A DNA stretch of 64,000 nucleotides from Anaerolineae bacterium (lineage in GTDB: Bacteria; Chloroflexota; Anaerolineae; B4-G1; SLSP01): positions 390,841 through 454,840 of the forward strand of contig JAXGPC010000005.1 of NCBI GenBank assembly GCA_040767155.1, read 5' to 3'. A program made the translations under genes and the position numbers. Of the stretch, positions 7,697 to 28,854 are shown in pieces. The notes beneath the pieces were generated by a model. It did not search any database, was not told where the DNA came from, and saw only the letters and a program-made list of their open reading frames with translations. Within the stretch, counting starts at the first letter, position 1. Each line of letters begins with the position of its first letter.

Positions 7697-7843
7697 GGAA
7701 TCACCCTTTCCCATTGTCTGTTTGCTCACGGATCCGCACGGATCTTCACGGATGCCCAATCCTGATCCTCCGATCCGTGAGCATCAGCGTAGATCCGTGA
7801 CCTGAGCTGTTTGGATCAAGAGCCTGGGCTCAGAGGCCCAGGC

Positions 7844-10149: not shown

Positions 10150-10171
10150 TCACGGACAAGGGAGGTGCAGA

Positions 10172-10948: not shown

Positions 10949-11659
10949 TTGGAGGTGATGATGAAAGACATCGACGGTGTTGGAAAGGTCGCTGCCATCG
11001 TGCTTGGCGGCGGACTGAAGGTGGTGACCCACGCGGGCCAGATCACCTACGAGCCTGAGGAGCAGGCCAAGGCGCGGCTCGACCGGGCCCTGGCGCTCTT
11101 CGAGGAGGGCAAGGTCGACGTCATCATCTCGACCGGCGACATCTCGCCCATGGCGGCGCGTGACCCAGCGGTGACCGGTCCCCGGACCGAGGCCGAAGTC
11201 GGGGTGCAGTATCTGCTCGCCAGGGCGGGGGAGGCGTCACCCGCGATGCGCCGGCGCCTCGAGGAGAGCATCTGCTATGAGGACCGGTCCATCGACACGA
11301 TCAGCAACGCCTGGTATGCGAAGAAGCGCTGCCTGGAGCCTCTGGGGATCACGGTGTGCATCGTCGTGACGTCGGATTACCATATCGCGCGGTCGCGCGT
11401 CATCTTCGAGTGGGTTCTGGGGCCGGGGTATACGGTGGAGACTGCCGAAGCGCCCTCGCCGCTCCGCGGCGCCGAGAGGGAGCAGCGCGATCGCTTCGAA
11501 GCCGCCCTGACCGACCATATGCGGAAGCATCTCTTTCCGGTCATCCCGGCGGGTGATGACGAAGCCATGGGGCACTATATGGAGAACGAGCACGCCAAGT
11601 TGTTCGCCGGCCTGGGCCCGGGCTTCGGCCCGCCCCCTGATCTGCCCAAGCCGGCGTGA
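10949..11659 (+). CDS. DUF218 / YdcF-like (ElyC/SanA family) protein
   Basis: Central VVTSDYHIARS motif and overall length typical of DUF218. Confidence 0.55.
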   Translation: MEVMMKDIDGVGKVAAIVLGGGLKVVTHAGQITYEPEEQAKARLDRALALFEEGKVDVIISTGDISPMAARDPAVTGPRTEAEVGVQYLLARAGEASPAMRRRLEESICYEDRSIDTISNAWYAKKRCLEPLGITVCIVVTSDYHIARSRVIFEWVLGPGYTVETAEAPSPLRGAEREQRDRFEAALTDHMRKHLFPVIPAGDDEAMGHYMENEHAKLFAGLGPGFGPPPDLPKPA

Positions 11660-11794
11660 GCCGGAGACTGCAGACGACGTCCCACGAAATGGGCCGTCGC
11701 TGGCCAGTGTCCAGGGAGGTCCTGCGGGCACAGGATCTATCAGGATATGAACTGCCGGAGGTGGCGCGTCCTTCCGGCTCTCCAGCGAGCCCTC

Positions 11795-11929
11795 GTCGGC
11801 GCGGTTCTCAACCTCGATGCAGACCGCGCCGTCGTAGCCTGCATCGGTCAGGGCTGAGAAGAAGCGGCCCCAGTCGATGTTTCTGAGCCGTGGCAGCCTG
11901 GACGTGTCGACCTGCAGCGAATAGGCCAT
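11795..11929 (-). pseudogene. 3'-terminal remnant of a sugar phosphate isomerase/epimerase (xylose-isomerase-like TIM barrel) gene
   Basis: Minus-strand frame reads ...RNIDWGRFFSALTDAGYDGAVCIEVENR, which is the characteristic C-terminus of AP-endonuclease-2/xylose-isomerase-like TIM barrels. There is no room for the N-terminal 200+ aa: the frame runs into the GH65 gene in another frame and has no plausible start or stop. Confidence 0.35.
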
Positions 11930-12014
11930 GGTGCCAATCCCATTCAGGGATGGGTCGGCAGAATCGCGCTCGCGAATCCCGGTGTTATGGTGTGTCTCCC
12001 TTTTTCGGGTAGCA

Positions 12015-14123: not shown

Positions 14124-14190
14124 CTACCGCGTCAGGGATGCAAGGAAGAACCTGGCCGCGTATCTACAGGCAGCTGGCGAACACTGCTAT

Positions 14191-14437
14191 TAGCCTGCGT
14201 CTACTGATCCTTGGGCTGCGCTCCTCTGGGCCGCTTGAAGACCATGATCACGTCGCGGGTTCTGCCGTAGCCTTCGTGGGTGACGAAGGAGGTCGCCAGC
14301 TCCCATCCGTCGCGGCCCAGGCCGTTCATCATGGCGTCGAGTTGTGCCTCATCGACAACGCCACCCCAGAAGCCCTGAGGGCGCAGTTTGACCGTCTTGT
14401 ATTCCCATTCAACGTCGTACCATCCTCCCTGTTGAAT
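14191..14437 (-). CDS. DUF4177 domain protein (small, no canonical start codon found)
   Basis: Minus-frame translation WEYKTVKLRPQGFWGGVVDEAQLDAMMNGLGRDGWELATSFV...VIMVFKRP matches DUF4177. GGAGGA lies upstream, but the first in-frame ATG/GTG/TTG is missing (GTT or ATT instead). Not in the ORF track. Confidence 0.4.
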
Positions 14438-14475
14438 GCAGAGTCACCATTCGAAGGAAGCCGTTCCTGCTTACC

Positions 14476-14880
14476 CTACGCGCGAACGCGGGGTCGGAAC
14501 TTGTAGCCGTAGACGATCGTGCCTTCTTCGCCGTGCGTGCGCAGGCGCCGCGTGACCATCTCTACCGGCATCCCGATCTGCACATCCTTGGGCGCGACAT
14601 CGGTGAGTTGGGCGGTGACGACCGGGCCCTCTTCGAGCTTGACGAGCGCCACGGTGTAGGGGGTATAGGGCTCGAAGCCCTCTGGCGCGTTGTAGACAGT
14701 ACTGAACGTGTAGACTTCGCCGCGTCCGCTCAGGGGCGCTGGTGTCTTTGCCGGCTTGCCGCACTCAGGGCAGATATCGCGTGGAGGGAAGATGGCCGCC
14801 CCGCAATGCCCACACCGCTCGCCCTCGAGCCGATATCGCTGTCCCCTTAACCGCCAATCGTTCGCGACCTTTGCTTCCAT
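14476..14880 (-). CDS. Zn-ribbon/OB-fold protein (DUF35), partner subunit of the archaeal-type thiolase/HMG-CoA synthase complex
   Basis: CGHCGAAIFPPRDICPECG zinc-ribbon motif followed by an OB fold. Sits in a block with thiolase, HMGS and HMGR genes. Confidence 0.8.
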   Translation of the reverse strand: MEAKVANDWRLRGQRYRLEGERCGHCGAAIFPPRDICPECGKPAKTPAPLSGRGEVYTFSTVYNAPEGFEPYTPYTVALVKLEEGPVVTAQLTDVAPKDVQIGMPVEMVTRRLRTHGEEGTIVYGYKFRPRVRA

Positions 14881-15096
14881 TTGTGTGCACTCCTTTTCCC
14901 GGGAGATCTTCTCCCCGTCGGATGTCCTATCATTTCACCAACGTCCAAGCTTTCCGATCCGTGGGTGCGTCTCACTCTGGGGCCACACTGCGGGTGTAGA
15001 TCACGTCTCCAGAGCGGGCAAGATGCCCGCGCTCCGAGAGCGATGTCACCCCCAGAATGAAACGCGCCTTACTTTGTTGCTGTCTCGCCTACTTGC

Positions 15097-16254
15097 CTAT
15101 CCCATGCCTTCGAGTATGTGCGTGATGATCGTGGCGCCGCTCCCGCCGATGTTCTGGGTCATGCCCAGCCGCGCGTTAGGAAGCTGGTTGGCCCCCGCCA
15201 ATCCACGCAACTGCAATACCGCTTCTACCACCTGATAGATACCAGTCGCCCCCACGGGATGGCCCCGTGCCTTCAAGCCGCCCATCGTCGCGATGGGCAC
15301 GCGCCCCTGCAGCGTGATCTCACCATCCAATGCCAGTTGAACGCCCTTGCCCCGTTCGGCAAACCCGGATGCTTCCAGGCTCAGTGCTGCCATAATCGTG
15401 AAGGCATCGTGCAACTCAAAGAAATCCAGGTCCTCAGGCTTGACATTCGCGAGCTGATACGCCTTGTGGGCAGAGGTCCGCGCAGCCTCCAACGCCAGCG
15501 GATCTTTGCGACTATGGACCGCCAGCGGCGCCATTCCTACAGCTGAGGCCCGGATCTTCACCGGTGCTGGGCTCAGCGCACGCGCATACTCTGCCGGCGC
15601 GAGCACAACCGCCGCTGCGCCGTCACAGACCGGCGAGGCGTCGAGCAATCCCACGGGCGTGGCAATGATCGGTGCGCGCGCATAAGCCTCTGCCGAGATC
15701 CGTGACTGGAACATCGCGTTGGGGTTGTTCACGCCGTTGGCATGTGCCGTTACCGCGAAGTTGGCGAAGTCCTCATGCTTCCACCCATACTCATACATAT
15801 AGCGCTGCATCAGCAGCGCGTTGAGGGCCACAAACGAGATCCCCTGGCCCGCCTCATATTCCGCATCTGCCGCGGCAGCTAACGCGGCCGTTGTTTCACG
15901 TCCGCCCGTATCCGTCATCTTCTCCACGCCGAGGGCGAGCACCAGGTTGGCCATCCCGCTGGCAACGGCCATTGTGCCAACCCGCAACGCCGCTGCGCCC
16001 GAGGCGCATGCGGCTTCTACCTTGAAGGCCTCGGTGTTCCCCAGCCCCATAAAGTCCACGGCGAGTGCGCCCAGTTGCGATTGCCCGGCAATCTCGCCGG
16101 AGAGCATGTTGCCCACGTACACTGCATCGACGGTCTCGATTGCGGCGTCTTGAAGCGCGCTCAGGCCCGCTTCGAGCATCAAATGGCGTATACCCGTCGT
16201 CCAGTGTTCGTCTACCGGGGTCTGCCCTATACCGATAATGGCTACGTCACGCAT
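15097..16254 (-). CDS. thiolase (acetyl-CoA C-acetyltransferase, archaeal type)
   Basis: VAIIGIGQTP N-terminus, thiolase-fold catalytic Cys region (AACASGAAAL) and C-terminal GHPVGATG motif. Confidence 0.85.
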   Translation of the reverse strand: MRDVAIIGIGQTPVDEHWTTGIRHLMLEAGLSALQDAAIETVDAVYVGNMLSGEIAGQSQLGALAVDFMGLGNTEAFKVEAACASGAAALRVGTMAVASGMANLVLALGVEKMTDTGGRETTAALAAAADAEYEAGQGISFVALNALLMQRYMYEYGWKHEDFANFAVTAHANGVNNPNAMFQSRISAEAYARAPIIATPVGLLDASPVCDGAAAVVLAPAEYARALSPAPVKIRASAVGMAPLAVHSRKDPLALEAARTSAHKAYQLANVKPEDLDFFELHDAFTIMAALSLEASGFAERGKGVQLALDGEITLQGRVPIATMGGLKARGHPVGATGIYQVVEAVLQLRGLAGANQLPNARLGMTQNIGGSGATIITHILEGMG

Positions 16255-16261
16255 CAGTCCT

Positions 16262-16335
16262 CGAATCGGCGAATCAGCGAATAAGCGAGAAAGCGAATCA
16301 GCGAAAAAAGCATCGCGGAATCAGCGAACTGGGAA
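16262..16335. repeat. tandem array of an about 8-bp GCGARWAR unit (gcgaatca/gcgaataa/gcgagaaa...)
   Basis: Seen directly in the HMGS-thiolase intergenic spacer. Same repeat family as the arrays at 58035-58093 and 58590-58662. Confidence 0.6.
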
Positions 16336-16367: not shown

Positions 16368-17426
16368 CTAGTCCCGGAGTTTGCCGCGATAGCGAGTGTA
16401 GAGCGCATAGTCGATCTCGACGCGGCGCTTGATGTAGTCAGCGGTGTGCGGCACTTTGTCCTGGCAGGCTGTGATGCGCTCGGTCACTTCCCAGGCAAAG
16501 GCGTCCGAGCCCGCGCCGGACCCGAAGCTCACCAGCAGGATCCGGTCGCCCGGCTTGGCGATATCCAGCACCGCCGACAAACCTGTCAGTGATGCTCCTG
16601 CATACGTATTGCCAATGACGCCGCTCAAGAGGCCTGTCTCGATCTGCACATTGGTGAATCCCAGCCGCTCTGCGGCGCGCCCCGGGAACTTCACATTGGG
16701 CTGGTGGAAGATGGCGTAGGTGAAATCCTGCGCCGTCAGCGCCAACTCCTCCATCAGCGCGCGCCCAGCGGACTCGACATGGTGGAAATAGGCCGGCTCG
16801 CCCGTGAAGCGTCCCCCGTGGCTGGGGTAGTGCTGATACGCGCGCCGCCAGAAATCCGGGGTGTCGGTCACGTAGGAGAGCGATCCCATGCACACGGCAA
16901 CGGCGCGCTCCGCCGGCCCGATGATGAACGCGCTCCCACCGCTTGCAGCGGTGTACTCCAGCTCGTCGCCCGGGCGTCCCTGTGCCGTATCGGCGCCAAT
17001 CGCCAGCGCATAATCCCCCATTCCTGATCCCACGAGCCCCATCGCCGCCTGCAGTGCTTCGGTCCCGGCCTTGCAGGCGAACTCGAAGTCGCCTGCCAGT
17101 AGATACGGCGTTGCGCCGAGCGCCTCGGCGACGAGCGTCGCTGACGGCTTCACCGCATAGGGATGCGACTCGCTGCCCACCCAGATCGCACGCAGCGCCT
17201 CAGGCAGGATCTCGGCCCGCGCGATGGCGTTCCGTGCTGCCTCGATGGCGATCGTAATCGTATCCTCGTCCAGTCCCGCAACCGCCTTCTCGCGAACGGG
17301 GCCGCGACCGCCCCCGGTCCAGACCCTGGCAATCTCCGAGCCAGGCAGGCGATACATAGGCACATAGGCACCATACCCCACGATCCCCACTGCCCGTTGC
17401 GGTTTCATCAACCGAGCTTCAGTCAC
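16368..17426 (-). CDS. hydroxymethylglutaryl-CoA synthase (archaeal type)
   Basis: [11 protein letters not shown]-terminus and a short length (352 aa) typical of archaeal-type HMGS that partners with thiolase/DUF35. Confidence 0.85.
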
Positions 17427-17438
17427 ACAGTCCTCCTC

Positions 17439-18764
17439 TTATGAGGCGCTGTCTTTGTTCAACAACGACCGAGCGACATCGATGCGGATGGCACGACTCT
17501 CGACCATCGCTTGCGCGACGCGGTCGATATCGGCTCCCACCGCGCCTGCGGCCATCGCCACCTGGCGGGCGTGGAGTGCCATGTGTCCCTTCTGGATGCC
17601 CTCGGTGGCCAGTGCCCGCAGTGCGGCCAGGTTCTGCGCCAGTCCAACGCTTGCGACGACCATAGCCAGCTCACCGGCGTTCTGCACACCGAGGATCTTC
17701 AACGCGACCCGAGCCGTCGGGTGCACGCGTGTGGCCCCTCCAACCGTTCCGAGCGCCAGTGGCAGCTCCAGATGGCCCAGAAGACTGCCCTGTCGATCAC
17801 GGCGCCAGGTGCTCAGGCTCGTGTACCGCCCGCCGCGGGCGGCATAGGCATGGGCCCCTGCTTCCACTGCACGCCAGTCGTTACCGGTCGCCAACACGAC
17901 GGCATCTACGCCGTTCATAACGCCCTTGTTGTGGGTCGCCGCCCGATAGGGATCGGCAGCGGCGAAGGCCCAGGCTAACTCGATCCCATCGGCCACCTGC
18001 GCTCCGGTGAACGTCTCGAACGCCAGCGCATCCTCGGGGATTGTGACCCGTGCCCGCGCCAGGCGGTGGTCCGCCAGATTGCTCAGGATCCGCAGATACG
18101 GTGTCCCACCGGTCAGCGCGGCCAGCTCCGGTGCCAGTCGCTCACATGCCGTGTTCACGACGTTCGCGCCCATCGCATCGCGCACGTCGATCAACAGGTG
18201 TACGACCAGCATCGACCCTCTGGCAGTATCGAGGATGCGGACCTGGATATCCTGCGCGCCGCCTCCCAGGTCCACGAGCACGGGGTCCAGCGCATTGACT
18301 ATCGCCATCAGGCGCGCTCTGTCAGCGAGAATCGCATCGATCGCGGCATGGGGGTCGGGCAGATCGACCAACTGAACCTGGCCAATCATTACGGGAGCAT
18401 CCGCCTCAGCTATAAACCCACCACCACGGCGAGCCAGCCTGGCGGCGAAGGATGCGCCCGCGACGACCGAGGGTTCCTCGATCACCATTGGCACCAACAC
18501 GTCGCGGCCGTTCACGACGAAGTTCGTGGCAATACCCAGGGGCAGTGCATAGCGGCCCACGGCGTTCTCGACCATGGCATTCGCCCGGTCGAGGCTCAAC
18601 CCCATTCCTTCGCTGAGGAGGTCGGCTTCCTCGTCCGACAGGACAACCTGCTCCCGGATCAAGGTGATACGTTCCTGAACCGTGAGTGTATAGAATCCGC
18701 TCAGTCGCGACGTCGGTTTTGATGGCATAAAGGGCGTTACGTGGACTCCTAGCGAGAAAATCAT
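17439..18764 (-). CDS. mvaA: hydroxymethylglutaryl-CoA reductase (class II-like)
   Basis: DAMGAN(V)VNT and EEPSVVAG motifs. Coupled to the HMGS gene downstream (12-nt gap). Confidence 0.9.
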   Translation of the reverse strand: MIFSLGVHVTPFMPSKPTSRLSGFYTLTVQERITLIREQVVLSDEEADLLSEGMGLSLDRANAMVENAVGRYALPLGIATNFVVNGRDVLVPMVIEEPSVVAGASFAARLARRGGGFIAEADAPVMIGQVQLVDLPDPHAAIDAILADRARLMAIVNALDPVLVDLGGGAQDIQVRILDTARGSMLVVHLLIDVRDAMGANVVNTACERLAPELAALTGGTPYLRILSNLADHRLARARVTIPEDALAFETFTGAQVADGIELAWAFAAADPYRAATHNKGVMNGVDAVVLATGNDWRAVEAGAHAYAARGGRYTSLSTWRRDRQGSLLGHLELPLALGTVGGATRVHPTARVALKILGVQNAGELAMVVASVGLAQNLAALRALATEGIQKGHMALHARQVAMAAGAVGADIDRVAQAMVESRAIRIDVARSLLNKDSAS

Positions 18765-18958
18765 AGCATAAGCCTCCTCTCAAAAGCTATCAGGTCTCGA
18801 TTTCTAACCTTTATCAGTCCTAGATGCGAAGCCTCAGACGTACGAAAGTTCCTCTGCTCCACATGATCTTGCTTTATTCGCCGTTTCGGGATATTCTCGG
18901 CAGAAGTGCAGCAGATCGGACTATTGCCGACAGAAACCTGCAGGGAGCGGCGCCTACT

Positions 18959-20797
18959 GTGTTACGCGAACTACACATCGAGGACTTCGCCATCATTGAT
19001 GAGCTCCATCTCACGCTGGAGCCGCGCTTCAACATCCTCACCGGCGAGACAGGTGCCGGCAAGTCCATCTTGATCGACGCAGTCACGCTCATGCTGGGCG
19101 AGCGTGCGGATACGACGTCTTTGCGCCAGGGCGCTGAGAGTGGGCGGGTTGAGGGTATGTTCGTCCTGTCGCCAACGCTGCAGGCCGCGATTGGCCCGAT
19201 CCTCGAGCGCGAAGGGCTCGAAGGCGATGCCCCGGACACGCTCTGGCTGGCGCGCGAACTGCGCAGTTCCGGGCGAACCGTTGCCCGCGTTAACGGACGT
19301 GCTGTGTCGGTCTCGCTGCTGCGCGAAATCGCCGAGAAGCTCGTTGACGTCCACGGCCAGAGCGAGCACCTCAGCCTGCTTCGCGTTCGCGAACACCTCA
19401 GTCTCCTTGATCGCTTTGCGCGCCTGGAGTCCCTGGCTACCCGTGTTGCCGAGCTTGTGGCTCGGATCCGCACGATCCGGCGTGAGCTGGCCCAGTTGCT
19501 CGGAAATGAGCGCGAGCGCATGCAGCGCATTGACCTGTTGCGCTTTCAGGTCGAGGAGATCCGTAGTGCAACCCTCAAGCCGGGTGAAAGGGAGGCCCTG
19601 GAGTCGGAGCTAACCCGGCTGACGAACGCCGAGCAGCTAGCTACCCTGGCAGCCGGTATCGTCGCGCGACTGGAGGAGGGCGGGGAACGTTCTGTAGCCG
19701 TTCTGGACCTCGTGGGGCGCAGCCAGAAGGACATGGCGTCCCTGGTCAGGATTGACGCGAGCCTCGAGCCCCAGAGCCGGATTCTGGATGAGATCGGATA
19801 TCAGGTCGAGGACCTGGCACGGACCTTGCGCGACTATGCCACCGCGGTCGAGTTCAATCCCAAGCGCCAGGCCTGGGTTGAGGAGCGTCTGATTCTGCTG
19901 CGCCATCTGGAGCGCAAGTACGGCGGGGACATTGCCGACATCCTGGCCTTTGCAGAGCGCGCGGCTGCCGATCTGGCTGCACTGGAGCACAGCGACGAGC
20001 GGATCGCCGAGCTTCAGGAGACCGAATCAGAGCTGCTGCGCGACTGTTCTGCGTTGTGCCTGGAGCTGTCGCACAGGCGGCGGGAGGCAGCTCAGGAGCT
20101 GGCAAGAGCTGTCGAGGTCGAGCTCAATGACCTGCGGATGGCGGGTGCCCGGTTTGGCGTTGCCTTTCGCAGCGATCCGGCCGAAGACGGCATTCCCCTC
20201 GAAACACCGCTCCCGCAGGCCCTGTTTGTCACAAGCACAGGCATCGAGATCGACGATGCAACGCCGGTCCGCCGATCCGCGTTCGATGCCACCGGGATGG
20301 ACCGGGTGGAGTTCTTGGTGGCCCCCAATGTGGGCGAGGGGCTCAAGCCGTTGGTCCGGATCGCCTCAGGTGGCGAGACCGCGCGGCTGATGCTGGCCCT
20401 CAAGACCGTGCTATCCAGAGCCGACCGAACCCCAACCCTGATCTTTGATGAGATCGACCAGGGGATTGGCGGGCGCATTGGAACGGTCGTCGGAGCCAAG
20501 TTGTGGCGGTTGACCGCCAAGGCCACCGAGGAGGACCCGGGCCATCAGGTGCTGTGCATCACGCATCTGCCACAGTTGGCTGGCTTCGGAGATGTGCATT
20601 ACCGGGTGGCCAAAGAGGTCGTGGAGGGCCGCACGGTGACCCATGTGACGCCCTTGCCGCCTGAGGAGCGTGTGGTCGAGCTGGCGCAGATGTTGGGCAC
20701 CAATGGCGCGGCTGCGGTGCGCGGGGCGCATGAGATTCTCGAGCAAGCTGCCGCGACGAAGACCCGGTTGGGTGGTCTCCAACCCAATGATTGCTGA
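18959..20797 (+). CDS. recN: DNA repair protein RecN
   Basis: LRELHIEDFAIIDELHLTLEPRFNILTGETGAGKSIL Walker A N-terminus, coiled-coil middle region and ABC-signature C-terminus. Start moved to GTG at 18959, preceded by GGAG. Confidence 0.9.
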   Translation: MLRELHIEDFAIIDELHLTLEPRFNILTGETGAGKSILIDAVTLMLGERADTTSLRQGAESGRVEGMFVLSPTLQAAIGPILEREGLEGDAPDTLWLARELRSSGRTVARVNGRAVSVSLLREIAEKLVDVHGQSEHLSLLRVREHLSLLDRFARLESLATRVAELVARIRTIRRELAQLLGNERERMQRIDLLRFQVEEIRSATLKPGEREALESELTRLTNAEQLATLAAGIVARLEEGGERSVAVLDLVGRSQKDMASLVRIDASLEPQSRILDEIGYQVEDLARTLRDYATAVEFNPKRQAWVEERLILLRHLERKYGGDIADILAFAERAAADLAALEHSDERIAELQETESELLRDCSALCLELSHRRREAAQELARAVEVELNDLRMAGARFGVAFRSDPAEDGIPLETPLPQALFVTSTGIEIDDATPVRRSAFDATGMDRVEFLVAPNVGEGLKPLVRIASGGETARLMLALKTVLSRADRTPTLIFDEIDQGIGGRIGTVVGAKLWRLTAKATEEDPGHQVLCITHLPQLAGFGDVHYRVAKEVVEGRTVTHVTPLPPEERVVELAQMLGTNGAAAVRGAHEILEQAAATKTRLGGLQPNDC

Positions 20798-20818
20798 TTG
20801 TTAGAAGACCATTATAAT
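20791..20818 (+). promoter_or_regulatory. candidate sigma-70 type promoter (TTGCTG-16-TATAAT) for the PATAN-GTPase operon
   Basis: An AT-rich island in an otherwise GC-rich context, about 80 nt upstream of the first operon gene. Confidence 0.3.
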
Positions 20819-20896
20819 GAGGTGTGAGGGCATTCGTCGCACATCTATGCGTTAGGGCACGTGCCACTCTGTTAGGCAAGGATAAGGACGGTCGCT

Positions 20897-21745
20897 ATGG
20901 CGCTTAAAGGTAAGCTTGAGGACTTTGGGATCACCCAACTGCTAAATCTCATCAACCTGGCCCGCAAGACCGGCACGCTCTATCTGGACCAGCCGGACCA
21001 GGAAGCTTATCTATGCTTTCGTGAGGGAAGCCTGATCTATGCGACCATGGCGGGTGTCGATGACTACCTACCGGGGATCTTGCAGCGCGCGGGTGTTTTC
21101 ACCGCCGACCACGTCAAGATGATCCGAGACAATATGCCTGGCAAGTCAGCTCAGGATATCGCCCGGGTTCTGATCACCAGCGGACGCCTCAAGCAACAAG
21201 TTGTCCTTGCCCATGTACGCCAGCATGTCGTCGACATTGTGTATCAGGTGTTTTCCTGGAACCATGGGACGTTCCGGTTCGAACCTTCTGAGCTGCCGGT
21301 CCAGGGCAAGATCACTACGTCCATCGCGCTCGAGAACCTCATCATCGAGGGCAATCGGCGGCTCAAGGAATGGGAGTTGCTGTGCGACGAGCTCCCTGAT
21401 CTCGATATCACGCTGAAATTCGCCGAGCGACCTTCGACCCCACTGCGCGACATCAATCTGAGCGTTGAAGAGTGGCGCGTCATCTCCTTCATCAACCCAC
21501 GCAACTCTATCCGCCAGATCGCTCATTACAACAACATGGATGAGTTGCAGATCCGAAAGATCGTCTATGGGCTGTTGCAGGCGGGGCTCGTCGAGATGAT
21601 CCGCCCTGCACAACCCGCTGCTCCCCGGGCTGCCAAGCCCGATGCGCCTGCCGCCGAGAAACAACCCAGCGCATCGCAGATGAAACGTCCCGCGGTGAAG
21701 CGCAGCATCATCCAGAGGCTGATCCGGCGCATCCGGGAGCTGTGA
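20897..21745 (+). CDS. PATAN domain (DUF4388) protein
   Basis: N-terminal LEDFGITQLLNLINLARKTGTLYL is the DUF4388/PATAN signature. First gene of a nine-gene coupled operon. Confidence 0.7.
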   Translation: MALKGKLEDFGITQLLNLINLARKTGTLYLDQPDQEAYLCFREGSLIYATMAGVDDYLPGILQRAGVFTADHVKMIRDNMPGKSAQDIARVLITSGRLKQQVVLAHVRQHVVDIVYQVFSWNHGTFRFEPSELPVQGKITTSIALENLIIEGNRRLKEWELLCDELPDLDITLKFAERPSTPLRDINLSVEEWRVISFINPRNSIRQIAHYNNMDELQIRKIVYGLLQAGLVEMIRPAQPAAPRAAKPDAPAAEKQPSASQMKRPAVKRSIIQRLIRRIREL

Positions 21746-21748
21746 TGC

Positions 21749-22294
21749 ATGCAGACTCTGAAAATCGTTGTCACCGGTCCCTTCTCCTCGGGCAAGACAG
21801 AGTTCATTCAGGCTGTCAGCGAAATCGACGTCGTCTCTACCGAACGCAAGATCACGCGTAAGTCGGAGCGCATCAAAGATCAGACGACCGTTGCGATGGA
21901 CTTCGGTCGCATCACCATCGATGAGGAGTTGATCCTCTACCTGTTCGGAACCCCCGGACAACGCCGGTTCGACTTCATGTGGGAGATCCTGTCGGAGGGC
22001 ATGTTGGGGTTTGTGGTGATGGTGGATAGCACGCGACCGGAGACTTTTCGCGAGGCGCGGCGTATTCTGGACACGTTTCGCAGCTATTCCCCCGTGCCCT
22101 ATCTCGTGGCGGCCAACAAACAGGACCTGGACGATGCGTGGCCTGCCGATGATCTGCGTATCGTGTTGCGTGTCGACCCCGACGTCAAGGTGGTCCCGTG
22201 CGTGGCGAAGGACAAGGAATCCGTCAAAAGTGTCCTTCTCGAGCTCCTGTATGCGATCCTGGAGCTGGTTGAGGTTGAGGCAGAGGAAGTCTAG
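21749..22294 (+). CDS. small Ras-like GTPase of the conservon CvnD / MglA-like family (ATP/GTP-binding protein)
   Basis: KIVVTGPFSSGKTEF P-loop, TTVAMDFGRI switch region, LYLFGTPGQRRFDFMW (DxxG) and ANKQD (NKxD). Strongly resembles Streptomyces CvnD. The stop/start context is TGAtgcATG, so the two genes are coupled. Confidence 0.75.
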   Translation: MQTLKIVVTGPFSSGKTEFIQAVSEIDVVSTERKITRKSERIKDQTTVAMDFGRITIDEELILYLFGTPGQRRFDFMWEILSEGMLGFVVMVDSTRPETFREARRILDTFRSYSPVPYLVAANKQDLDDAWPADDLRIVLRVDPDVKVVPCVAKDKESVKSVLLELLYAILELVEVEAEEV

Positions 22295-22297
22295 ACT

Positions 22298-23086
22298 ATG
22301 AGCTCCATCGTCACCGAGAGGGGCATCGTTCACTATGAGACCTTTGGCCGGGGCCAGCCGGTTGTCCTGCTGCATTGCTGGCTCGGCTCGTGGAACTACT
22401 GGATGTCGACCATGGAGTTCCTGGCCGGGCACAAGTTCAAGACCTATGCCCTGGATTTCTGGGGTTTTGGCGAGTCGGCTAAACAGGGCGCCTTCTCCGT
22501 CGATGAGTACGTGGAGATGGTCGATCAATTCATGGAACGGATGGGGCTGGCTACAGCGCACGTGATGGGGCACTCGATGGGGGGAACTGTGTCGCTATCC
22601 CTGGCTCTCGCGCATCCTCAGCGCGTTTCGAAGGTAGCCGTCGTTGGTTCGCCCATCGTGGGTTCGGGGCTGAGCTTGCTGCTCAAGGCTGCCGGGTATC
22701 GTTCAGTTGCCAGGTTGCTCTACGGCATCCCCGGTGTGCTCCCGGCGTTGTTGAAGGTACTTTCTGTCACCTATGCCCGGGATGCGCGCAGGCTCTGGGG
22801 GTTATTGCGCGACGACATCTCACGCACGACGGTCGATTCCTTCTCCCGCAGCATCGGTGACCTGCGGCGCACCGATCTGCGGCCCCGGCTGCGCGAATGC
22901 CGTGTGCCCGCAATGGGCATCTATGGACGTAAGGACAACATCGTCAACCCAAAGCAAGGCGAGCTGTTGCGTGCCGGGATCGCAACCCATACTCTACACA
23001 CCTTCGAGGGCTCGGGTCATTTCCCGATGCTCGATGAGACCCAACGCTTTCACAACGCGATCCTGAGTTTTCTGGCGGAGACGTGA
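22298..23086 (+). CDS. alpha/beta hydrolase (intact catalytic triad)
   Basis: GHSMGG nucleophile elbow and a C-terminal GHFPM histidine. Confidence 0.8.
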   Translation: MSSIVTERGIVHYETFGRGQPVVLLHCWLGSWNYWMSTMEFLAGHKFKTYALDFWGFGESAKQGAFSVDEYVEMVDQFMERMGLATAHVMGHSMGGTVSLSLALAHPQRVSKVAVVGSPIVGSGLSLLLKAAGYRSVARLLYGIPGVLPALLKVLSVTYARDARRLWGLLRDDISRTTVDSFSRSIGDLRRTDLRPRLRECRVPAMGIYGRKDNIVNPKQGELLRAGIATHTLHTFEGSGHFPMLDETQRFHNAILSFLAET

Positions 23087-23730
23087 GCGTTGATCCTGCT
23101 TATCGCAACGCCTGTTTTCCGAACAGGATCTCGCGCATCCTGCTTCTGGCGCTTCAGGACGTCCTGGGGGCGAATGGCAGCAGCGCTGTTCTGACGACGG
23201 CCAAGCTTCCACAATATGTAGCTACGCTGCCCCCCGCCGATTTCGAGCCAGGACTGACTTTCTCCGAGATTGGGCGCCTCTTCGAGGCCCTCGAGAGCAT
23301 TTACGGTGTACAGGCTGGTGACCGGCTGGCCAAGCAGGCTGGTCGGGAGAGCTTCAAGTACTGGATCGAAGGTTTGGGCGGGCTTGTCAGTTTCGCCGAT
23401 GTGCTATTGTGCTTTCTCCCGCTATCCTTACGGGCCAGGATCGGGGTGGAGGTAGTGGCCGAGATCATCAACCGCTATACCGATGAACGTCTGGTTCTTG
23501 GCGAAAGCCACGACCAGTATCTTGTGAAAGTCGAGACCTGTGGACTCTGTGCGGGGCGCAGAACCGATATCCCGGCGTGCGGCTATATGCAGGGCACCCT
23601 GGATGAGTTGTTGTTTTGGGTGAGCCGGGGGCGCCGGTTCACCATCCGGGAGACGGCCTGCATCGCTCTCGGAGATCCGGCCTGCGTCTTTGCTATCGAC
23701 AAGGTTCCGCCATCGTCTGCGGGGGCATAA
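23083..23730 (+). CDS. V4R (4-vinyl reductase-like) domain protein
   Basis: C-terminal ETCGLCAGRRTD.PACGYMQGTLDE block with paired cysteines, typical of V4R/BchJ-like small-molecule-binding domains. Overlaps the previous gene by 4 nt. Confidence 0.55.
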   Translation: MSVDPAYRNACFPNRISRILLLALQDVLGANGSSAVLTTAKLPQYVATLPPADFEPGLTFSEIGRLFEALESIYGVQAGDRLAKQAGRESFKYWIEGLGGLVSFADVLLCFLPLSLRARIGVEVVAEIINRYTDERLVLGESHDQYLVKVETCGLCAGRRTDIPACGYMQGTLDELLFWVSRGRRFTIRETACIALGDPACVFAIDKVPPSSAGA

Positions 23731-23733
23731 GCG

Positions 23734-24987
23734 ATGCGTAAGGTCATCCTGCGAGACAGGCGCAAGATTCCTCCCTTCAACGAGCCCGCGCGCGAGTTGA
23801 GTGTGCTGACCAAGCCCTTGTGGCTGCACCAGCGTGACGTCCTGGCCCGCTATACGACCGAGGAACACGAGGTCGACTCTCTGGAGCAGATCAAAGCAGG
23901 TCCGGTGGAGATGTTGGTCCACCGCGACAACCTTTACTTCGATGCCGAGTTCATCGACGAGTTCGTGCGACGTGCACGTGCTTTGGGCAAAGCATGTCGG
24001 GTCGCTTTCTCGCTCGACGATCGTGCCATCAATGGCCATGCGATCTATCTCCAGGAAGGTATCCAACGGGAAGGTCAGCACTACGTTGCCGATCTCTGGT
24101 ATTTCCCTCACGGCGTCGAACCGGATGCCAGCCCGCTGGTCATCGATACCGAACCTCGCGAGGTGGGGTTCTACCACGTGCCCACCCATATGGCGAATCC
24201 TTATGGTGATCTCGTGTACGACTTGCCCACCAAGCCCTTTCTCTCCATCGAACACTGGGTGCACGTTCTCCACGCCAATGTCGATTTCGGCATCTTCGCG
24301 ATTGGCGCACGCTTTGAACGTGATGCGGAGAGGAACGTGGGGCTGAACCTGAGACTCCTCTGGCGTGGCATGGTCGAGCGAAAACAGGTCCTGACCACTT
24401 CGGCGTTGGTGAAGATTGGCAAGAACTGTAGCATCGATCCGACTGCTACGATCCAGGGTCCGGCATTCATCGGCAACAATGTCTTCATCGGTGCGGGGGC
24501 GGTTGTCGGCAATTGCACCATCGGCGATAATGTAACCATCGATCAGGGGTGCCAGTTGATGCTGAGCGTGGTGGGCAATGGCTCGTTCCTGCCGTTCCGT
24601 GCGGCGCTCTATCGCTCGGTGTTGATGGAGAACTGTATCCTGGCACAGAACTCTTGCCTGCAGATGACCGTAGTCGGGCGAGGATCGTTCATAGGTGCCG
24701 GGAACACGTTCACCGACTTCAACCTGGTGGATCGACCGGTGCGATCGTATTTCAAGGGGACTCTGCAGGATACGGGGATGACGGCATTGGGCGGAGCCGT
24801 AGGGCACAACGTGCGCATCGGGTCAGGGATGGTCATCTTCCCGGCCCGGATGATCGACTCCGACGTCATCCTCTTTGCAACGCCGGATCGGCGTGTGGTT
24901 CGTAAGAATGTCCTCTGGGAGGACAGTGACCACCTGGGGCTTGAGAACGGGGAGAGCCTACATCCCCGACTCTATCCCCGGGACTGA
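23734..24987 (+). CDS. left-handed beta-helix (hexapeptide-repeat) protein with a 220-aa N-terminal domain of unclear function
   Basis: The C-terminal half contains repeated [LIV]G hexapeptides (IGKNCSIDPTATIQGPAFIGNNVFIGAGAVVGNCTIGDNVTIDQ). The N-terminus begins KVIL like sugar-nucleotidyltransferases but lacks the GGxGTR loop. Confidence 0.6.
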   Translation: MRKVILRDRRKIPPFNEPARELSVLTKPLWLHQRDVLARYTTEEHEVDSLEQIKAGPVEMLVHRDNLYFDAEFIDEFVRRARALGKACRVAFSLDDRAINGHAIYLQEGIQREGQHYVADLWYFPHGVEPDASPLVIDTEPREVGFYHVPTHMANPYGDLVYDLPTKPFLSIEHWVHVLHANVDFGIFAIGARFERDAERNVGLNLRLLWRGMVERKQVLTTSALVKIGKNCSIDPTATIQGPAFIGNNVFIGAGAVVGNCTIGDNVTIDQGCQLMLSVVGNGSFLPFRAALYRSVLMENCILAQNSCLQMTVVGRGSFIGAGNTFTDFNLVDRPVRSYFKGTLQDTGMTALGGAVGHNVRIGSGMVIFPARMIDSDVILFATPDRRVVRKNVLWEDSDHLGLENGESLHPRLYPRD

Positions 24988-25021
24988 TGGGGCTCTATTG
25001 TTATAAGGCAGGAGGTAAGCG

Positions 25022-25912
25022 ATGAGCGCTGGTCGCATCCTGGTGGTCGAAGACGATGCTGATATCTCCAATATGCTGCAGCTCTATTTCAAGGCGCAGG
25101 GGTATGAGGTTTCTGTAGCCCTGCGCGGTCTGGACGCTCTGGATGCGACGCGGCAGAAGATGCCCAATGTGATCGTGCTGGACATTATGCTCCCCGACAT
25201 TGATGGCTATGAGGTCTGCCGGCGATTGCGCACGAATCTGCGAACCAGCCACATCCCGATTATCTTTCTGACACAGAAGGATGAGCGGAGTGACCGGATT
25301 CGGGGTCTCGAACTTGGTGCGGACGATTACATTACCAAGCCCTTCGATGTTGAGGAGTTGCGCCTGCGCGTTCGCAACACTATTACAAGCGCTGAGGTTG
25401 CCAGCTTGACCAGCCCATCCACGGGGTTGGCGAGTGGCAAGCTGATCGAGCAGCAACTGCGCGCGCTGCTCCGGGCCGAGAAGTGGGGGATCCTCTACAT
25501 TGGTATCAGGGGGCTGGAGGCATTCAATCAGGCCTACGGTTTCGTTGCGGGGCAGGATGTTCTGCGCTTCACGGGTATGATCCTGAATGCCGCGGTCGAC
25601 GAGGTGGGCACTGACAATGATTTCACCGGTCACATTGGCAGCGACGACTTCATCGTGGTCACCGGCGCCGACAAGGTGGACCACTTGCGCGATGTTATCC
25701 GCCAGAGGTTCGACAAGGATGTGGGCACGCACTATGACTTTATGACCCGGATGCAGGGCTATCTGGTGGTGAAGGATGACGCAGGCAACGACATTCAGAC
25801 GCCACTGATGCGATTGGCAATCGGAGCGCTCACGTCCGATGACGGTCCGTTCACCGATATCCGAGAGATCACGGAGGCTGCAGCCGAAGCCAGGCGTCGC
25901 GATAGCATGTAG
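25022..25912 (+). CDS. response regulator, REC domain plus degenerate GGDEF domain (GSDDF)
   Basis: REC domain with the phospho-acceptor Asp in VLDIMLPD. The GGDEF-like domain carries GSDDF instead of GG[DE]EF and has a degenerate upstream metal-binding block. Confidence 0.8.
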   Translation: MSAGRILVVEDDADISNMLQLYFKAQGYEVSVALRGLDALDATRQKMPNVIVLDIMLPDIDGYEVCRRLRTNLRTSHIPIIFLTQKDERSDRIRGLELGADDYITKPFDVEELRLRVRNTITSAEVASLTSPSTGLASGKLIEQQLRALLRAEKWGILYIGIRGLEAFNQAYGFVAGQDVLRFTGMILNAAVDEVGTDNDFTGHIGSDDFIVVTGADKVDHLRDVIRQRFDKDVGTHYDFMTRMQGYLVVKDDAGNDIQTPLMRLAIGALTSDDGPFTDIREITEAAAEARRRDSM

Positions 25913-25967
25913 CGCCTGGGCGCCTGTTCCCAGATCGTCCCTCAGAAGCTGGAAGGGAAGTTGTCGT

Positions 25968-26345
25968 ATGCTCAAAATCCTGATTGCTGAAGATGAACGC
26001 GACATCCGCGAACTGATCTCATTCACCCTTCAGTTCGCTGGGTACGAGGTTGTCTCGGTTCAGAATGGGGCTGAGGCGGTCGAGCAGGCGTTGGCGACCC
26101 AACCCGATCTCATCCTGCTCGACGTGCGTATGCCCAAGATGACCGGCTATCAGGCGTGTGAGGCGCTCAAAGCGTCGCCCGAGACGAGGGATATCCCGGT
26201 CCTTTTTCTCTCTGCCAAGGGCCAGGAGTCCGAGATCCGTCAGGGGTTCGAGGCTGGGGCCATCGACTACATTCTGAAGCCCTTCTCGCCTGATGAACTC
26301 ACTGCACAGGTCAAACGCGCTCTGGCCCCTTCGGACCAGACATAG
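25968..26345 (+). CDS. single-domain response regulator receiver (CheY-like)
   Basis: ILIAEDERDIREL...LLDVRMPKMTGY...DYILKPF. Start reassigned to ATG 25968, preceded by GGAAGGGAAG. Confidence 0.8.
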   Translation: MLKILIAEDERDIRELISFTLQFAGYEVVSVQNGAEAVEQALATQPDLILLDVRMPKMTGYQACEALKASPETRDIPVLFLSAKGQESEIRQGFEAGAIDYILKPFSPDELTAQVKRALAPSDQT

Positions 26346-26363
26346 GTATCGCTGTGGAGCCCC

Positions 26364-27152
26364 ATGAGCGCTCTGGTTGTCGACAATAGCCTGGTACATT
26401 ACGAGGTGCTCGGTCGTGGTCGACCGCTGCTATTCCTTCATGGGTGGTTGGGCTCCTGGCGCTATTGGGTGCCCACGATGATCGAGCTCTCGTCCTCACA
26501 CCGGGCCTATGCCCTGGACTTCTGGGGCTTTGGGGATTCGGACAGAGTTCCCTCGAGATATGACCTGCCCGGGTACACGGATCAGGTCGCTGCCTTTCTC
26601 GATCAACTGGGGATTGGTCGATTGCCCATCATAGGCCACGGGCTCGGCAGCGCCGTGGGACTCACCCTTGCACGGGACCACCCTGAGTGCGTCGAACAGG
26701 TCATGGCTATCAGCTTACCTCTGACCGGCGCTCACATTGGGCGGGCCTTGAGCACCTTCGGCGGTGGGGAGAATGCTGCCCGGGCGGTGCTTGGGCGCCG
26801 GATCAAGTCCTATGACGAGGTTGACATCGAGGCGGCGAAGACGGAGGGCGCGGCGGTGGTGCAGAGCGTACGTTCCGTTGCTGATCAGGACATCGGTGCG
26901 CTGCTTCGTGATAGTGCTGTCCCGGTTCTTCTCGTTGCAGGTGCAGACGACCCGATCGTCCAACCGCCGGATGATGCACTGGCGGCAAACCTGAGTGCGC
27001 ACGTTCACTCGATCGTCTTCGATGGCGTGCAGCACTACCCGATGCTTGAGCAATCGAGCAAGTTCTGCCGGCTGTTGCGCGATTTTCTCACCTATCAGGA
27101 CGACTGGGATAGAATGCAGCTTAAGGATGAATGGAAGCGCCGCATGCGCTAA
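26364..27152 (+). CDS. alpha/beta hydrolase paralog lacking the nucleophile serine (pseudo-hydrolase)
   Basis: About 45% identical to the 22298-23086 product over the first 130 aa (LVHYEVLGRGRPLLFLHGWLGSWRYW...). The nucleophile elbow reads GHGLG instead of GHSMG; the histidine is retained. Confidence 0.75.
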   Translation: MSALVVDNSLVHYEVLGRGRPLLFLHGWLGSWRYWVPTMIELSSSHRAYALDFWGFGDSDRVPSRYDLPGYTDQVAAFLDQLGIGRLPIIGHGLGSAVGLTLARDHPECVEQVMAISLPLTGAHIGRALSTFGGGENAARAVLGRRIKSYDEVDIEAAKTEGAAVVQSVRSVADQDIGALLRDSAVPVLLVAGADDPIVQPPDDALAANLSAHVHSIVFDGVQHYPMLEQSSKFCRLLRDFLTYQDDWDRMQLKDEWKRRMR

Positions 27153-27158
27153 GGCGAT

Positions 27159-27923
27159 ATGAAGAAAAGCACAGAATCGGATCCCTGGGCTATGGGACTG
27201 ACCATGCGCGCACTGGTGTTGGTCGCGTTTGTGGCGGCCTTTGCCGTTCCTGCCGGACTTGTGCCCATCGTCGCTGTTGCGACCGATGCCGAGGGTGTGT
27301 CAGAGGAGTCCGAGGGGTTGGTGGTCATTCCACTCAGTACTGCCACGCCTGTGGCGACATCAGTACCTGTGTCTACCCCGACGCCCACGGTCCCGCGCGT
27401 GGGGATCATTGCCGGTCATACAGGCAGCGACAGTGGGGCGGTCTGCCCTGATGGCCTTCAGGAAGTCACCATCAATGACAATGTTGCGCGCCAGGTTGTG
27501 GCGATTCTGTCGGCTCGCGGGTGGTCGGTCATGCAGTTGGAGGAGTTTGATGCGCGCCTGACGGGGTATACGGCGGATGCTCTGGTGTCGATCCATGCAG
27601 ATTCCTGTACCCTTGTGGATCGGTCAGGCTATAAGGTGGCTCGGGCCGAATCGAGCTCGATTCCCGATGCAGAGGACCGGTTGACTGCTTGCCTGAGCCA
27701 GCGTTACGGTGAGCATACGGGCATCCCGTTTGATCCCCACACGATCACGTACGATATGCGGCGATACCATGCCCTATACGAGATCAACCCCAATACGCCC
27801 GCAGCGATCATTGAGACCGGCTTTATGTCGGGTGATCGGGAGCTGCTTACCGAGCGCTCCGACGTCGTCGCACGTGGCATTGCCGATGGCCTGATCTGTT
27901 TCATCGAGGGCGAATCTCCCTGA
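27159..27923 (+). CDS. N-acetylmuramoyl-L-alanine amidase (Amidase_3 family), secreted or membrane-anchored
   Basis: N-terminal TM/signal region, then IIAGHTGSDSGA...NDNVARQVVAIL...LVSIHADS. Separated by 6 nt from the previous gene. Confidence 0.7.
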   Translation: MKKSTESDPWAMGLTMRALVLVAFVAAFAVPAGLVPIVAVATDAEGVSEESEGLVVIPLSTATPVATSVPVSTPTPTVPRVGIIAGHTGSDSGAVCPDGLQEVTINDNVARQVVAILSARGWSVMQLEEFDARLTGYTADALVSIHADSCTLVDRSGYKVARAESSSIPDAEDRLTACLSQRYGEHTGIPFDPHTITYDMRRYHALYEINPNTPAAIIETGFMSGDRELLTERSDVVARGIADGLICFIEGESP

Positions 27924-27951
27924 GTGTCTTTTTGCGTCTGCCGCAGGCGGT

Positions 27952-27980
27952 TTGATTTGCCGTACTGTCTGGGGTAGAAT
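27952..27980 (+). promoter_or_regulatory. candidate promoter TTGATT-17-TAGAAT upstream of ssb
   Basis: Canonical spacing; followed by AAAGGAG and the ssb ATG 57 nt downstream. Confidence 0.35.
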
Positions 27981-28037
27981 GTAGCCCATAGGTACTCCTC
28001 TGCAGTGTCTTGCCGGAATCCGAAAGGAGTTGTACGC

Positions 28038-28463
28038 ATGTCTTACCAGAAGGTGATCATTGTTGGGAATCTGGGGCGTGACCCCGAGATGCGCTACACC
28101 CCCGATGGGACGCCCGTAACGTCCTTCAGCGTCGCAACCAATCGTCGATGGACGAACCAGGATGGCTCGCAGGGGGAAGAGACGGTGTGGTTTAGGGTCT
28201 CGGCTTGGCGCAAGCAGGCTGAGGTCGCCGCTAACTATCTGACCAAGGGGCGCCAGGTCATGGTTGAGGGGCGGATGACTGCTGACAAGGCGACCGGTGG
28301 TCCACGTATCTGGACAGGTCAGGATGGCACGCCTCGGGCAAGCTATGAGATGATTGCTGATCGGATTGTTTTCCTTGGTACCCGCGCCGAGGCAACGTCG
28401 GGTGCTGGTGGTGACGAGGCGGGAGGGCCCGATTTTGTCCCTGAGGATGAAATACCCTTCTAA
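28038..28463 (+). CDS. ssb: single-stranded DNA-binding protein
   Basis: KVIIVGNLGRDPEMRYTPDGTPV OB-fold start and an acidic C-terminal tail ending DEIPF. Start moved to the ATG preceded by AAAGGAG. Confidence 0.9.
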   Translation: MSYQKVIIVGNLGRDPEMRYTPDGTPVTSFSVATNRRWTNQDGSQGEETVWFRVSAWRKQAEVAANYLTKGRQVMVEGRMTADKATGGPRIWTGQDGTPRASYEMIADRIVFLGTRAEATSGAGGDEAGGPDFVPEDEIPF

Positions 28464-28536
28464 GTAGCTGCACACCGTGGCGCGTTGGCGACAGAGGGGA
28501 TCCTTCCCCTCTGTCGTTTTCTACCGAAGGAGATCT

Positions 28537-28854
28537 ATGTCACAGCCCAAACCGCGATCGATCAACATCGAGCTTCCTGCCGATCTGGACCCGACCTATG
28601 CGAACTTCGCGGTCATTTCACATACACCTTCCGAGGTGATCTTCGACCTGGCCCAGCTGCTTCCCAATCAGCCGAAGGTGCGCGTGCGTACCCGGGTGGT
28701 CATGACGCCGCTCAATGCAAAGCTGATGCTGCGAGCTCTCGAGGAGAATCTGGCCAAGTATGAAGCGGCGTTTGGCGAGATTGTGGTTCCTGGCCACGGC
28801 GACGATCTCATTCGGTCGTTCTTCGGCGGGAAGATCCCGCCTGAAACGGAGTAG
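28537..28854 (+). CDS. DUF3467 domain protein
   Basis: INIELPADLDPTYANFAVISHTPSEVIFD...RVVMTP..AK.L..AL.EN..KYE matches DUF3467. Start at the ATG preceded by GAAGGAG. Confidence 0.65.
   Translation: MSQPKPRSINIELPADLDPTYANFAVISHTPSEVIFDLAQLLPNQPKVRVRTRVVMTPLNAKLMLRALEENLAKYEAAFGEIVVPGHGDDLIRSFFGGKIPPETE

Follow-up and report, generated by a model that had tools for sequence, protein, structure and literature searches.

Does a bacterial small GTPase draw its regulators from the two folds on which eukaryotes build guanine nucleotide exchange factors (GEFs)? This question is raised by a plus-strand block of genes in a 64-kb stretch of DNA (the window) from an Anaerolineae bacterium (contig JAXGPC010000005.1), in which the span 21749-24987 was followed up and open reading frames (ORFs) were read from the sequence. 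The span encodes a Ras-like GTPase together with a V4R protein, related to the TRAPP subunit Bet3, and with a protein in which a nucleotidyltransferase-like (NT-like) N-terminal domain precedes a left-handed beta-helix (LbH), as in the gamma and epsilon subunits of eIF2B. An earlier note on this DNA had put both forward as candidate exchange factors or regulators of the GTPase. The gene arrangement is non-random, and the functional link of the GTPase with the V4R and LbH genes is real and well supported because the operon is conserved across Anaerolineae and Thermoflexales loci. As to what the link consists of, the reading that we prefer, at a probability of roughly 0.4, is that the two proteins belong to a ligand- or acyl-handling branch of a signaling operon centered on a PATAN/MglA-type switch and a phosphorelay.

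The genes that the earlier note had listed are all present on the plus strand at the positions it gave, and its gene calls were correct. The block opens with a PATAN protein (PatA_N/DUF4388; 282 aa, 20897-21745), followed by the GTPase (181 aa, 21749-22294), an alpha/beta hydrolase (hydrolase 1; 262 aa, 22298-23086), the V4R protein (215 aa, 23083-23730) and the NT-like/LbH protein (417 aa, 23734-24987), hereafter the LbH protein, whose NT-fold domain and helical arm are encoded by 23734-24375 and whose hexapeptide beta-helix and tail are encoded by 24403-24987. From the PATAN to the LbH gene, the junctions read TGAtgcATG, TAGactATG, a GTGA overlap in which the GTG start of the V4R gene overlaps the stop codon of hydrolase 1, and TAAgcgATG. 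With 3-nt spacers or a 4-nt overlap at every junction, these first five genes are thus tightly packed. The PATAN, GTPase and hydrolase 1 genes form one reading frame, parted by a stop and one codon only, and the V4R and LbH genes have a common frame, which fits tight coupling or re-initiation. The note had placed the GTPase next to the V4R gene and had omitted the hydrolase gene that sits between them, so that "next to" has to be taken as "in the same compact operon", which is how the claim stands.

A genome scan yielded at least 555 stretches encoding relatives; 80 loci, titled Anaerolineae, Anaerolineales, Thermoflexales/Thermoflexia or unclassified Chloroflexota, were kept, and two further loci were compared. 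Each gene was counted among the loci with enough flank to be eligible, hence the varying denominators. The GTPase gene lies 5' of the LbH gene in 71 of 71 loci and the V4R gene in 72 of 79, hydrolase 1 is present in 76 of 77, and the PATAN gene immediately precedes that of the GTPase in all 63, with a median gap of 7 nt between high-scoring segment pairs. Downstream of the LbH gene, a reductase resembling acyl-acyl carrier protein (ACP) reductase (AAR) follows in 68/76 loci and a response regulator with a GGDEF-like domain in 66/70. The order PATAN-GTPase-hydrolase-(V4R)-LbH is held in every eligible locus, and the full conserved order is PATAN-GTPase-hydrolase-V4R-LbH-(acyl-thioester reductase)-response regulator/GGDEF-(kinase)-response regulator-pseudohydrolase. 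The upstream flank differs, RecN being confined to closer relatives, and the block itself is therefore the conserved unit. Identity to the window proteins is highest for the GTPase (69-90%), the best-conserved protein of the block, followed by the LbH protein (58-81% in the species set, up to 94% elsewhere), the hydrolase and PATAN proteins, and finally the V4R protein (36-65%), the lowest of the five. No description of this operon was found in the literature on V4R with GTPases, Bet3 or Roadblock, on PATAN/DUF4388, or on Anaerolineae with MglA.

These observations make it very improbable that V4R and LbH are ordinary metabolic genes that are co-transcribed with the GTPase and have no signaling tie to it. 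Remote homologs of the LbH protein do occur in biosynthetic contexts, and housekeeping genes flank the operon in the window. On the other side, the order of the block is constant in every eligible locus despite the differing flanks, the genes are joined by 3-nt spacers and a 4-nt overlap, and the deeper LbH orthologs stay with the GGDEF-type response regulator and a kinase.

From its Pfam matches (ATP_bind_1, Ras, Arf), its PDB matches and its motif pattern, the GTPase is classified as an MglA-family switch, neither a Rab nor a translational GTPase of the eIF2 gamma type. Its closest solved relative in a PDB search is Thermus MglA (3t12, E 2e-8), and Arf-like proteins come next. It has a Ras-like G domain with intact G1, G4 and G5 motifs and a replaced G3 Asp, as expected of this family; across 74 related loci, the motifs G1 (GPFSSGKT), G3 (FGTPGQ, which lacks the Asp) and G4 (NKQD) do not vary. 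The switch-I position that we take to correspond to Arg53 of MglA is mostly Gln in this family. The PATAN protein (Pfam PF14332, 96 bits), the product of the first gene of the conserved block, has a C-terminal part that is weakly winged-helix-like, and no solved homolog of it was found.

The pairing of these two genes has precedents, in that PATAN genes adjoin MglA/MglB genes (PMC4316618; bioRxiv 2021.06.11.447907) and are found now and then beside MglA genes of groups 1 and 5 (PMC4316618). In cyanobacteria, the type IV pilus motor is a binding partner of PATAN domains (bioRxiv 2021.06.11.447907). The present block resembles the MglA-MglB/PATAN modules of Myxococcus and Thermus (MglA groups 1 and 5; Wuichet and Sogaard-Andersen, 2014) in having a GTPase closest to MglA, without the G3 Asp, and an adjoining PATAN gene. 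It differs from them in that no Roadblock/MglB gene (Robl_LC7) was matched among the operon proteins scanned against Pfam, and in that the partners here are a hydrolase, V4R, NT-like/LbH, a thioester reductase, a GGDEF-type response regulator and a kinase, a partner set of an MglA-type GTPase that was not described in the literature searched.

The V4R call of the earlier note, and the likeness to Bet3/TRAPPC3 that it had drawn, proved correct at the level of the fold. The Pfam V4R match passes marginally (31.8 bits against a gathering cut-off of 31) and is accompanied by a partial match to BchJ, and many of the orthologs carry a precomputed PF02830 match. The AlphaFold model is confident (pLDDT, the predicted local distance difference test, of 90.7), and its predicted two-layer alpha/beta fold is superposable on solved V4R and TRAPPC3 structures. 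When the V4R protein alone was compared with PDB sequences, no match was obtained; a profile of 58 orthologs gave weak matches to MJ1460 (E 0.078) and MopR (E 0.37), which fall exactly on a C...ExxC...C stretch and are useful for the Zn motif only. The putative Zn site consists of Cys166, Glu190, Cys193 and Cys201, each of which is conserved in 65 or more of 72 loci, and these residues align with the C...ExxC...C of MopR and MJ1460, that is, with the prokaryotic V4R site.

The putative Zn site is thus a feature shared with the V4R/TRAPP Bet3 family (Podar et al., 2008), including the TRAPPC3 of Thorarchaeota (Tran et al., 2024). In contrast with that family, the operon offers no longin or Roadblock partner, the neighboring GTPase is not a Rab, and the V4R protein of the window is as similar to the ligand sensors H-NOX, DmpR, PoxR and MopR as to Bet3. 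For archaeal TRAPPC3/V4R proteins, it was concluded that they are probably ligand-binding, and in the Asgard archaeon MK-D1 small GTPase genes generally lie outside operons with Roadblock, longin and TRAPPC3 (Tran et al., 2024, PMC10933270).

In one clade, the V4R protein also appears to be dispensable. It is missing from six Thermoflexus loci (L064, L067-L070 and L077), in which the hydrolase gene runs almost straight into the LbH gene; these loci keep PATAN, GTPase, hydrolase, LbH and reductase, and no GGDEF-type response regulator was detected downstream of LbH in them. At locus L024, a diverged ORF of 195 aa (7379-7966) occupies the V4R position and has lost the Cys ligands.

A separate association of V4R with a small GTPase was observed in a related genome. 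On the minus strand of L090 (1-4337), corresponding to L094 9001-14121, an operon encodes a Ras/Roc-like GTPase with the G3 motif WDMGGQ, a Roadblock/LC7 protein, a 506-aa protein carrying two V4R domains in tandem, and two further proteins without an assigned family (315 and 425 aa) whose N-termini are alike. It lies 3.7 kb from a V4R-LbH-response regulator/GGDEF-kinase cluster, on the opposite strand. A metagenome scan for further copies of this operon brought up only two loci, in which the GTPase stretch matched the query exactly, and a word-indexed search yielded no other homologs of the tandem-V4R protein. This V4R-GTPase association is independent of the main block and was found in one lineage only.

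Turning to the LbH protein, the architecture that the earlier note had described, an NT-like domain without the Gly-rich loop joined to a beta-helix in the manner of eIF2B gamma and epsilon, was borne out by the predicted structure and by Foldseek. The model (pLDDT 80.7 overall, mostly above 85 in the N-domain) consists of an NT-fold alpha/beta domain (residues ~1-172), a long helical arm (175-214) and the beta-helix. Foldseek aligned it over its full length with ST0452, GMPPA/GMPPB, VTC1/KJC2 and GlmU; sugar-1-phosphate nucleotidyltransferase/acetyltransferases and their relatives rank above eIF2B in this structural comparison. The N-domain thus adopts a predicted nucleotidyltransferase fold, and these structural matches led to the rejection of a novel fold for it. 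Sequence comparisons reach less far, as Pfam and NCBIfam gave no match, NTP_transferase included, for residues 1-220. Pfam recognizes the beta-helix as Hexapep (51.6 bits), LbH_EIF2B scoring 47.9 bits, under its gathering cut-off of 54. In PDB sequence matches of the LbH domain, the acyl-ACP-dependent LpxD and GlmU lead, and gamma-carbonic anhydrase and eIF2B are also found. An hhalign comparison with E. coli GlmU gave a probability of 97% over residues 224-271; in this comparison and in the PDB profile search, only the helical arm and the LbH coils were aligned.

Its N-terminus reads MRKVILRDRRKIPPFNEPAR and contains no GxGxR loop; ILRDRRKIPPFNEPAR stands where the Gly-rich G-x-G-T-R nucleotide-binding loop would be, a basic RDRRK loop taking its place. 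The motif PFNEPAR of the N-domain is invariant in 81 loci, as is His358 in the C-terminal domain, where TFTDF (325-329) and GH (357-358) do not vary. Its N-domain family is of modest size: at E up to 0.001, 161 representative clusters among 1.84 billion belong to it. In relation to ST0452/GlmU, to GMPPB and to the regulatory paralogs GMPPA/KONJAC, the helical arm and the first LbH coils align with GlmU at the profile level, whereas the LbH protein lacks the GxGTR loop and any Pfam NTP_transferase match, and its N-domain belongs to a small separate family marked by PF(G/N)EP. The earlier note had suspected a "dead" nucleotidyltransferase. The absence of the Gly-rich loop stands, whereas the loss of activity is not proven, as the sequence pattern suggests that Arg20 and Asp65 take the positions of the PK lysine and the GD aspartate, respectively, of canonical enzymes. 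Many NCBI records of metagenome-assembled genomes name the LbH protein "multidrug transporter", which is clearly a propagated misannotation of a soluble NT-like/LbH protein.

The missing loop bears on another explanation, in which the LbH protein is a non-catalytic pseudo-enzyme hub, comparable to GMPPA/KONJAC or to the eIF2B core, that would bind a nucleotide or nucleotide-sugar and, as effector or adaptor, link the GTP-bound GTPase to the response regulators, with V4R as an optional ligand-sensing accessory. The loss of the Gly-rich loop in favor of the invariant PFNEPAR and the basic RDRRK loop speaks for it, as do the very high conservation of the protein along its full length and the presence of other degenerate enzymes in the operon (a pseudo-hydrolase and a GGDDF domain, see below). 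In contrast, the coupling of the LbH protein to a Cys-retaining reductase, together with the biosynthetic setting of its remote relatives, points to real chemistry, and the invariant His358 and TFTDF could be catalytic. We consider such a hub possible, although on balance improbable.

Could either protein, then, catalyze nucleotide exchange? In this case, the folds are no predictor of such activity. For TRAPP, exchange catalysis requires the longin subunits Bet5 and Trs23, which form the catalytic surface together with Bet3; for eIF2B, it requires the C-terminal HEAT/W2 domain of the epsilon subunit. Neither a longin nor a Roadblock Pfam match was obtained among the operon proteins scanned, the PATAN fold not having been modeled, and the operon thus presents neither the longin subunits nor the Rab substrate of a TRAPP-type Rab GEF (for the TRAPP subunit layout, see PMC10933270). 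Similarly, no W2/HEAT match was found in the LbH protein, whose chain ends ~40 residues past the beta-helix. The order of its domains, NT-like then LbH, is that of eIF2B gamma and epsilon, whereas its neighbor is a small MglA-type GTPase and not eIF2 gamma, and ST0452 and GMPPB are closer to it.

That V4R and/or the LbH protein directly influence which nucleotide the GTPase carries, as GEFs or GEF scaffolds and as counterparts of Bet3 and eIF2B, therefore has to be weighed against several observations. The Bet3-like and eIF2B-like folds were both confirmed, the genes are tightly packed in one operon with the GTPase across the class, no MglB/Roadblock was found among the Pfam-scanned operon genes, which leaves the slot of the GTPase regulator vacant, the GTPase and the LbH protein are the two best-conserved proteins of the block, and the Ras-like GTPase/Roadblock/tandem-V4R operon of L090/L094 provides an independent association. 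However, Thermoflexus has retained the GTPase and lost V4R, which is degenerate at L024; the TRAPP longin subunits and the HEAT domain of eIF2B epsilon are absent; the GTPase is of the MglA family, for which Roadblock and RomR/RomX proteins are the regulators known so far (PMC4316618); remote members of the LbH family have no GTPase neighbors, and the deeper ortholog L091 has no adjacent GTPase; and the Roadblock/tandem-V4R operon was seen in a single lineage. Of the earlier proposal, the functional link is upheld by the class-wide synteny, and that same synteny is the evidence for the exchange role, which appears unlikely with the exchange-active parts of TRAPP and eIF2B absent, a GTPase of another family and a V4R protein that is dispensable in one clade. 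By analogy, ligand sensors and enzymes that handle acyl groups or nucleotides match both proteins as well as GEFs do, or better. If either contacts the GTPase directly, LbH is the likelier of the two, and the high conservation of both LbH and the GTPase is the best argument for such a contact.

The genes that follow LbH in relatives give further indications of its role. In most of them, the next gene encodes a 356-aa homolog of the N-terminal reductase domain of PigE (PDB 4ppm, E 2e-36), which also matches cyanobacterial AAR (6jzq, E 1e-23; TIGR04058, E 6.5e-29). The homology to AAR/PigE spans the whole length, and a Cys is aligned with that of the PigE chain (ACMAEA versus GCMAET). The gene nevertheless differs from AAR/PigE reductases, since it scores 101 bits, far below the equivalog cut-off of 450, has no aldehyde-deformylating oxygenase partner, and lies in a context of signaling, not alkane synthesis. 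The LbH stop codon sometimes overlaps the reductase start, as in L002 and L091. Relatives also encode a GAF/PAS hybrid histidine kinase of 1500-3000 aa between the two response regulators; in L002, the reductase gene occupies 9248-10318 and that of the hybrid kinase 11306-16276. By tblastn, neither the reductase nor the big hybrid kinase is present in the 64-kb window, where the corresponding junctions are 24987-25022 and 25912-25968, and its closest relatives (L004-L010) are likewise without the reductase.

More distant relatives retain parts of the arrangement. The LbH ortholog of L092 (42% identity) lies in a full operon, that of L090 (48%) in a V4R-LbH-response regulator/GGDEF-kinase cluster, and that of L091 (39%) in an LbH-reductase-response regulator/GGDEF-kinase cluster with no GTPase upstream. 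Members of the family at 25-35% identity share the PF(G/N)EP motif and the architecture only. Their neighbors include radical-SAM, methyltransferase, glycosyltransferase, polyketide synthase/ketosynthase, aldehyde-decarbonylase-like, desaturase, CoA-transferase and patatin genes, and no GTPase gene was found beside these remote members in their biosynthetic clusters. Because the remote members have no GTPase and deeper orthologs can lack it, the LbH family is not intrinsically a GTPase regulator; the LbH protein is most steadily accompanied by the reductase, its tightest partner, and by the pair formed by the GGDEF-type response regulator and the kinase.

The preferred reading, that of a ligand- or acyl-handling branch, accommodates V4R and LbH as partners of the GTPase module, in which their part would be that of a sensor, an enzyme or a scaffold, without catalysis of nucleotide exchange. 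V4R would be the sensor, a Zn-stabilized binder of a small hydrophobic ligand, and the LbH protein, the thioester reductase and hydrolase 1 would bind or process an acyl- or nucleotide-linked metabolite. This branch may feed the GTPase-PATAN switch and the phosphorelay, or may be governed by them, and by analogy with MglA and PATAN systems the output would most likely be a cell-surface or polarity behavior. Several points weigh against this proposal. The window has neither the thioester reductase nor the kinase, which leaves this genome with an incomplete acyl branch, yet V4R and LbH are retained. The conservation of the LbH protein, second only to that of the GTPase, also fits a direct protein partner of the GTPase. 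Nucleotidyl transfer by the NT-like domain is doubtful because the canonical nucleotide loop is missing, and no equivalent of a catalytic His was mapped in the LbH domain. Finally, the roles assigned here derive from fold, context and analogy.

The remaining genes of the block include degenerate enzymes as well as an intact one. Hydrolase 1 (Pfam Abhydrolase_1, 111 bits) has an intact triad, Ser93-Asp213-His241, invariant in 77 of 77 loci. The LbH gene is followed by a response regulator with a degenerate GGDEF-like domain (25022-25912; Response_reg, 103 bits; partial GGDEF match, 28 bits), the motif of which, GGDDF in most relatives, reads GSDDF in the window; with the Pfam model partly matched, this domain is probably not an active diguanylate cyclase. 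Next comes a single-domain CheY-like response regulator (~25968-26345; Response_reg, 106 bits, residues 47-158 of the long ORF), 58-76% identical in relatives, for which the sequence points to the ATG at 25968, which lies within the listed ORF 25839-26345, as the likely start. The last gene, hydrolase 2 (262 aa, 26364-27152; Abhydrolase_1, 78.6 bits), has the nucleophile elbow GHGLG, which is GH(G/A)LG in relatives. The nucleophile position is Gly or Ala instead of Ser in all 32 downstream copies, and by this pattern hydrolase 2 is a conserved pseudo-hydrolase. An intact hydrolase 1 beside a pseudo-hydrolase and a degenerate GGDEF domain would suit sensor or adaptor roles.

In all, the block has eight closely spaced plus-strand genes, flanked by recN (18824-20797) on one side and by an Amidase_3 gene (27159-27923) on the other. 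A scan of 20700-28600 for promoters and terminators gave signals at chance level only. Three antisense ORFs of 341-475 aa (21146-22573, 23428-24807 and 25001-26026, minus strand) were rejected as genes, and are most likely artifacts, because they overlap conserved plus-strand genes and because such ORFs are expected at a guanine-plus-cytosine content of ~60%. Further upstream, the minus strand (16368-18764) carries genes of the mevalonate pathway, for HMG-CoA reductase (Pfam, 371 bits) and an HMG-CoA-synthase-like protein. These neighbors are also found in L001, the flank being common to closer relatives only.

To our knowledge, prokaryotic V4R proteins have no clear function, and the kinship with TRAPP Bet3 proposed for them has so far lacked any connection, genomic or functional, to a GTPase. 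Here, V4R and an MglA-family GTPase are encoded in one operon throughout a bacterial class, together with a GlmU/eIF2B-like protein that lacks the Gly-rich loop and is nearly as conserved as the GTPase. That V4R and/or the LbH protein directly control the nucleotide state or the membrane targeting of this GTPase, as a bacterial GTPase-regulator assembly, is decidedly unlikely in our estimation. If it were true, prokaryotic V4R proteins would for the first time be linked functionally to small GTPases, the partnership of Bet3 with GTPases in TRAPP would appear to be older than the eukaryotes, and the GTPase/Roadblock/tandem-V4R operon of L090/L094 would be a second instance. The operon provides a small, defined set of proteins on which regulation of small GTPases by V4R or NT/LbH proteins is directly testable. 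If V4R and LbH do not regulate the GTPase, they would still be new accessories of a PATAN/MglA-type switch, within a multi-gene signaling operon of the Anaerolineae that is rich in pseudo-enzymes and for which we found no published description.

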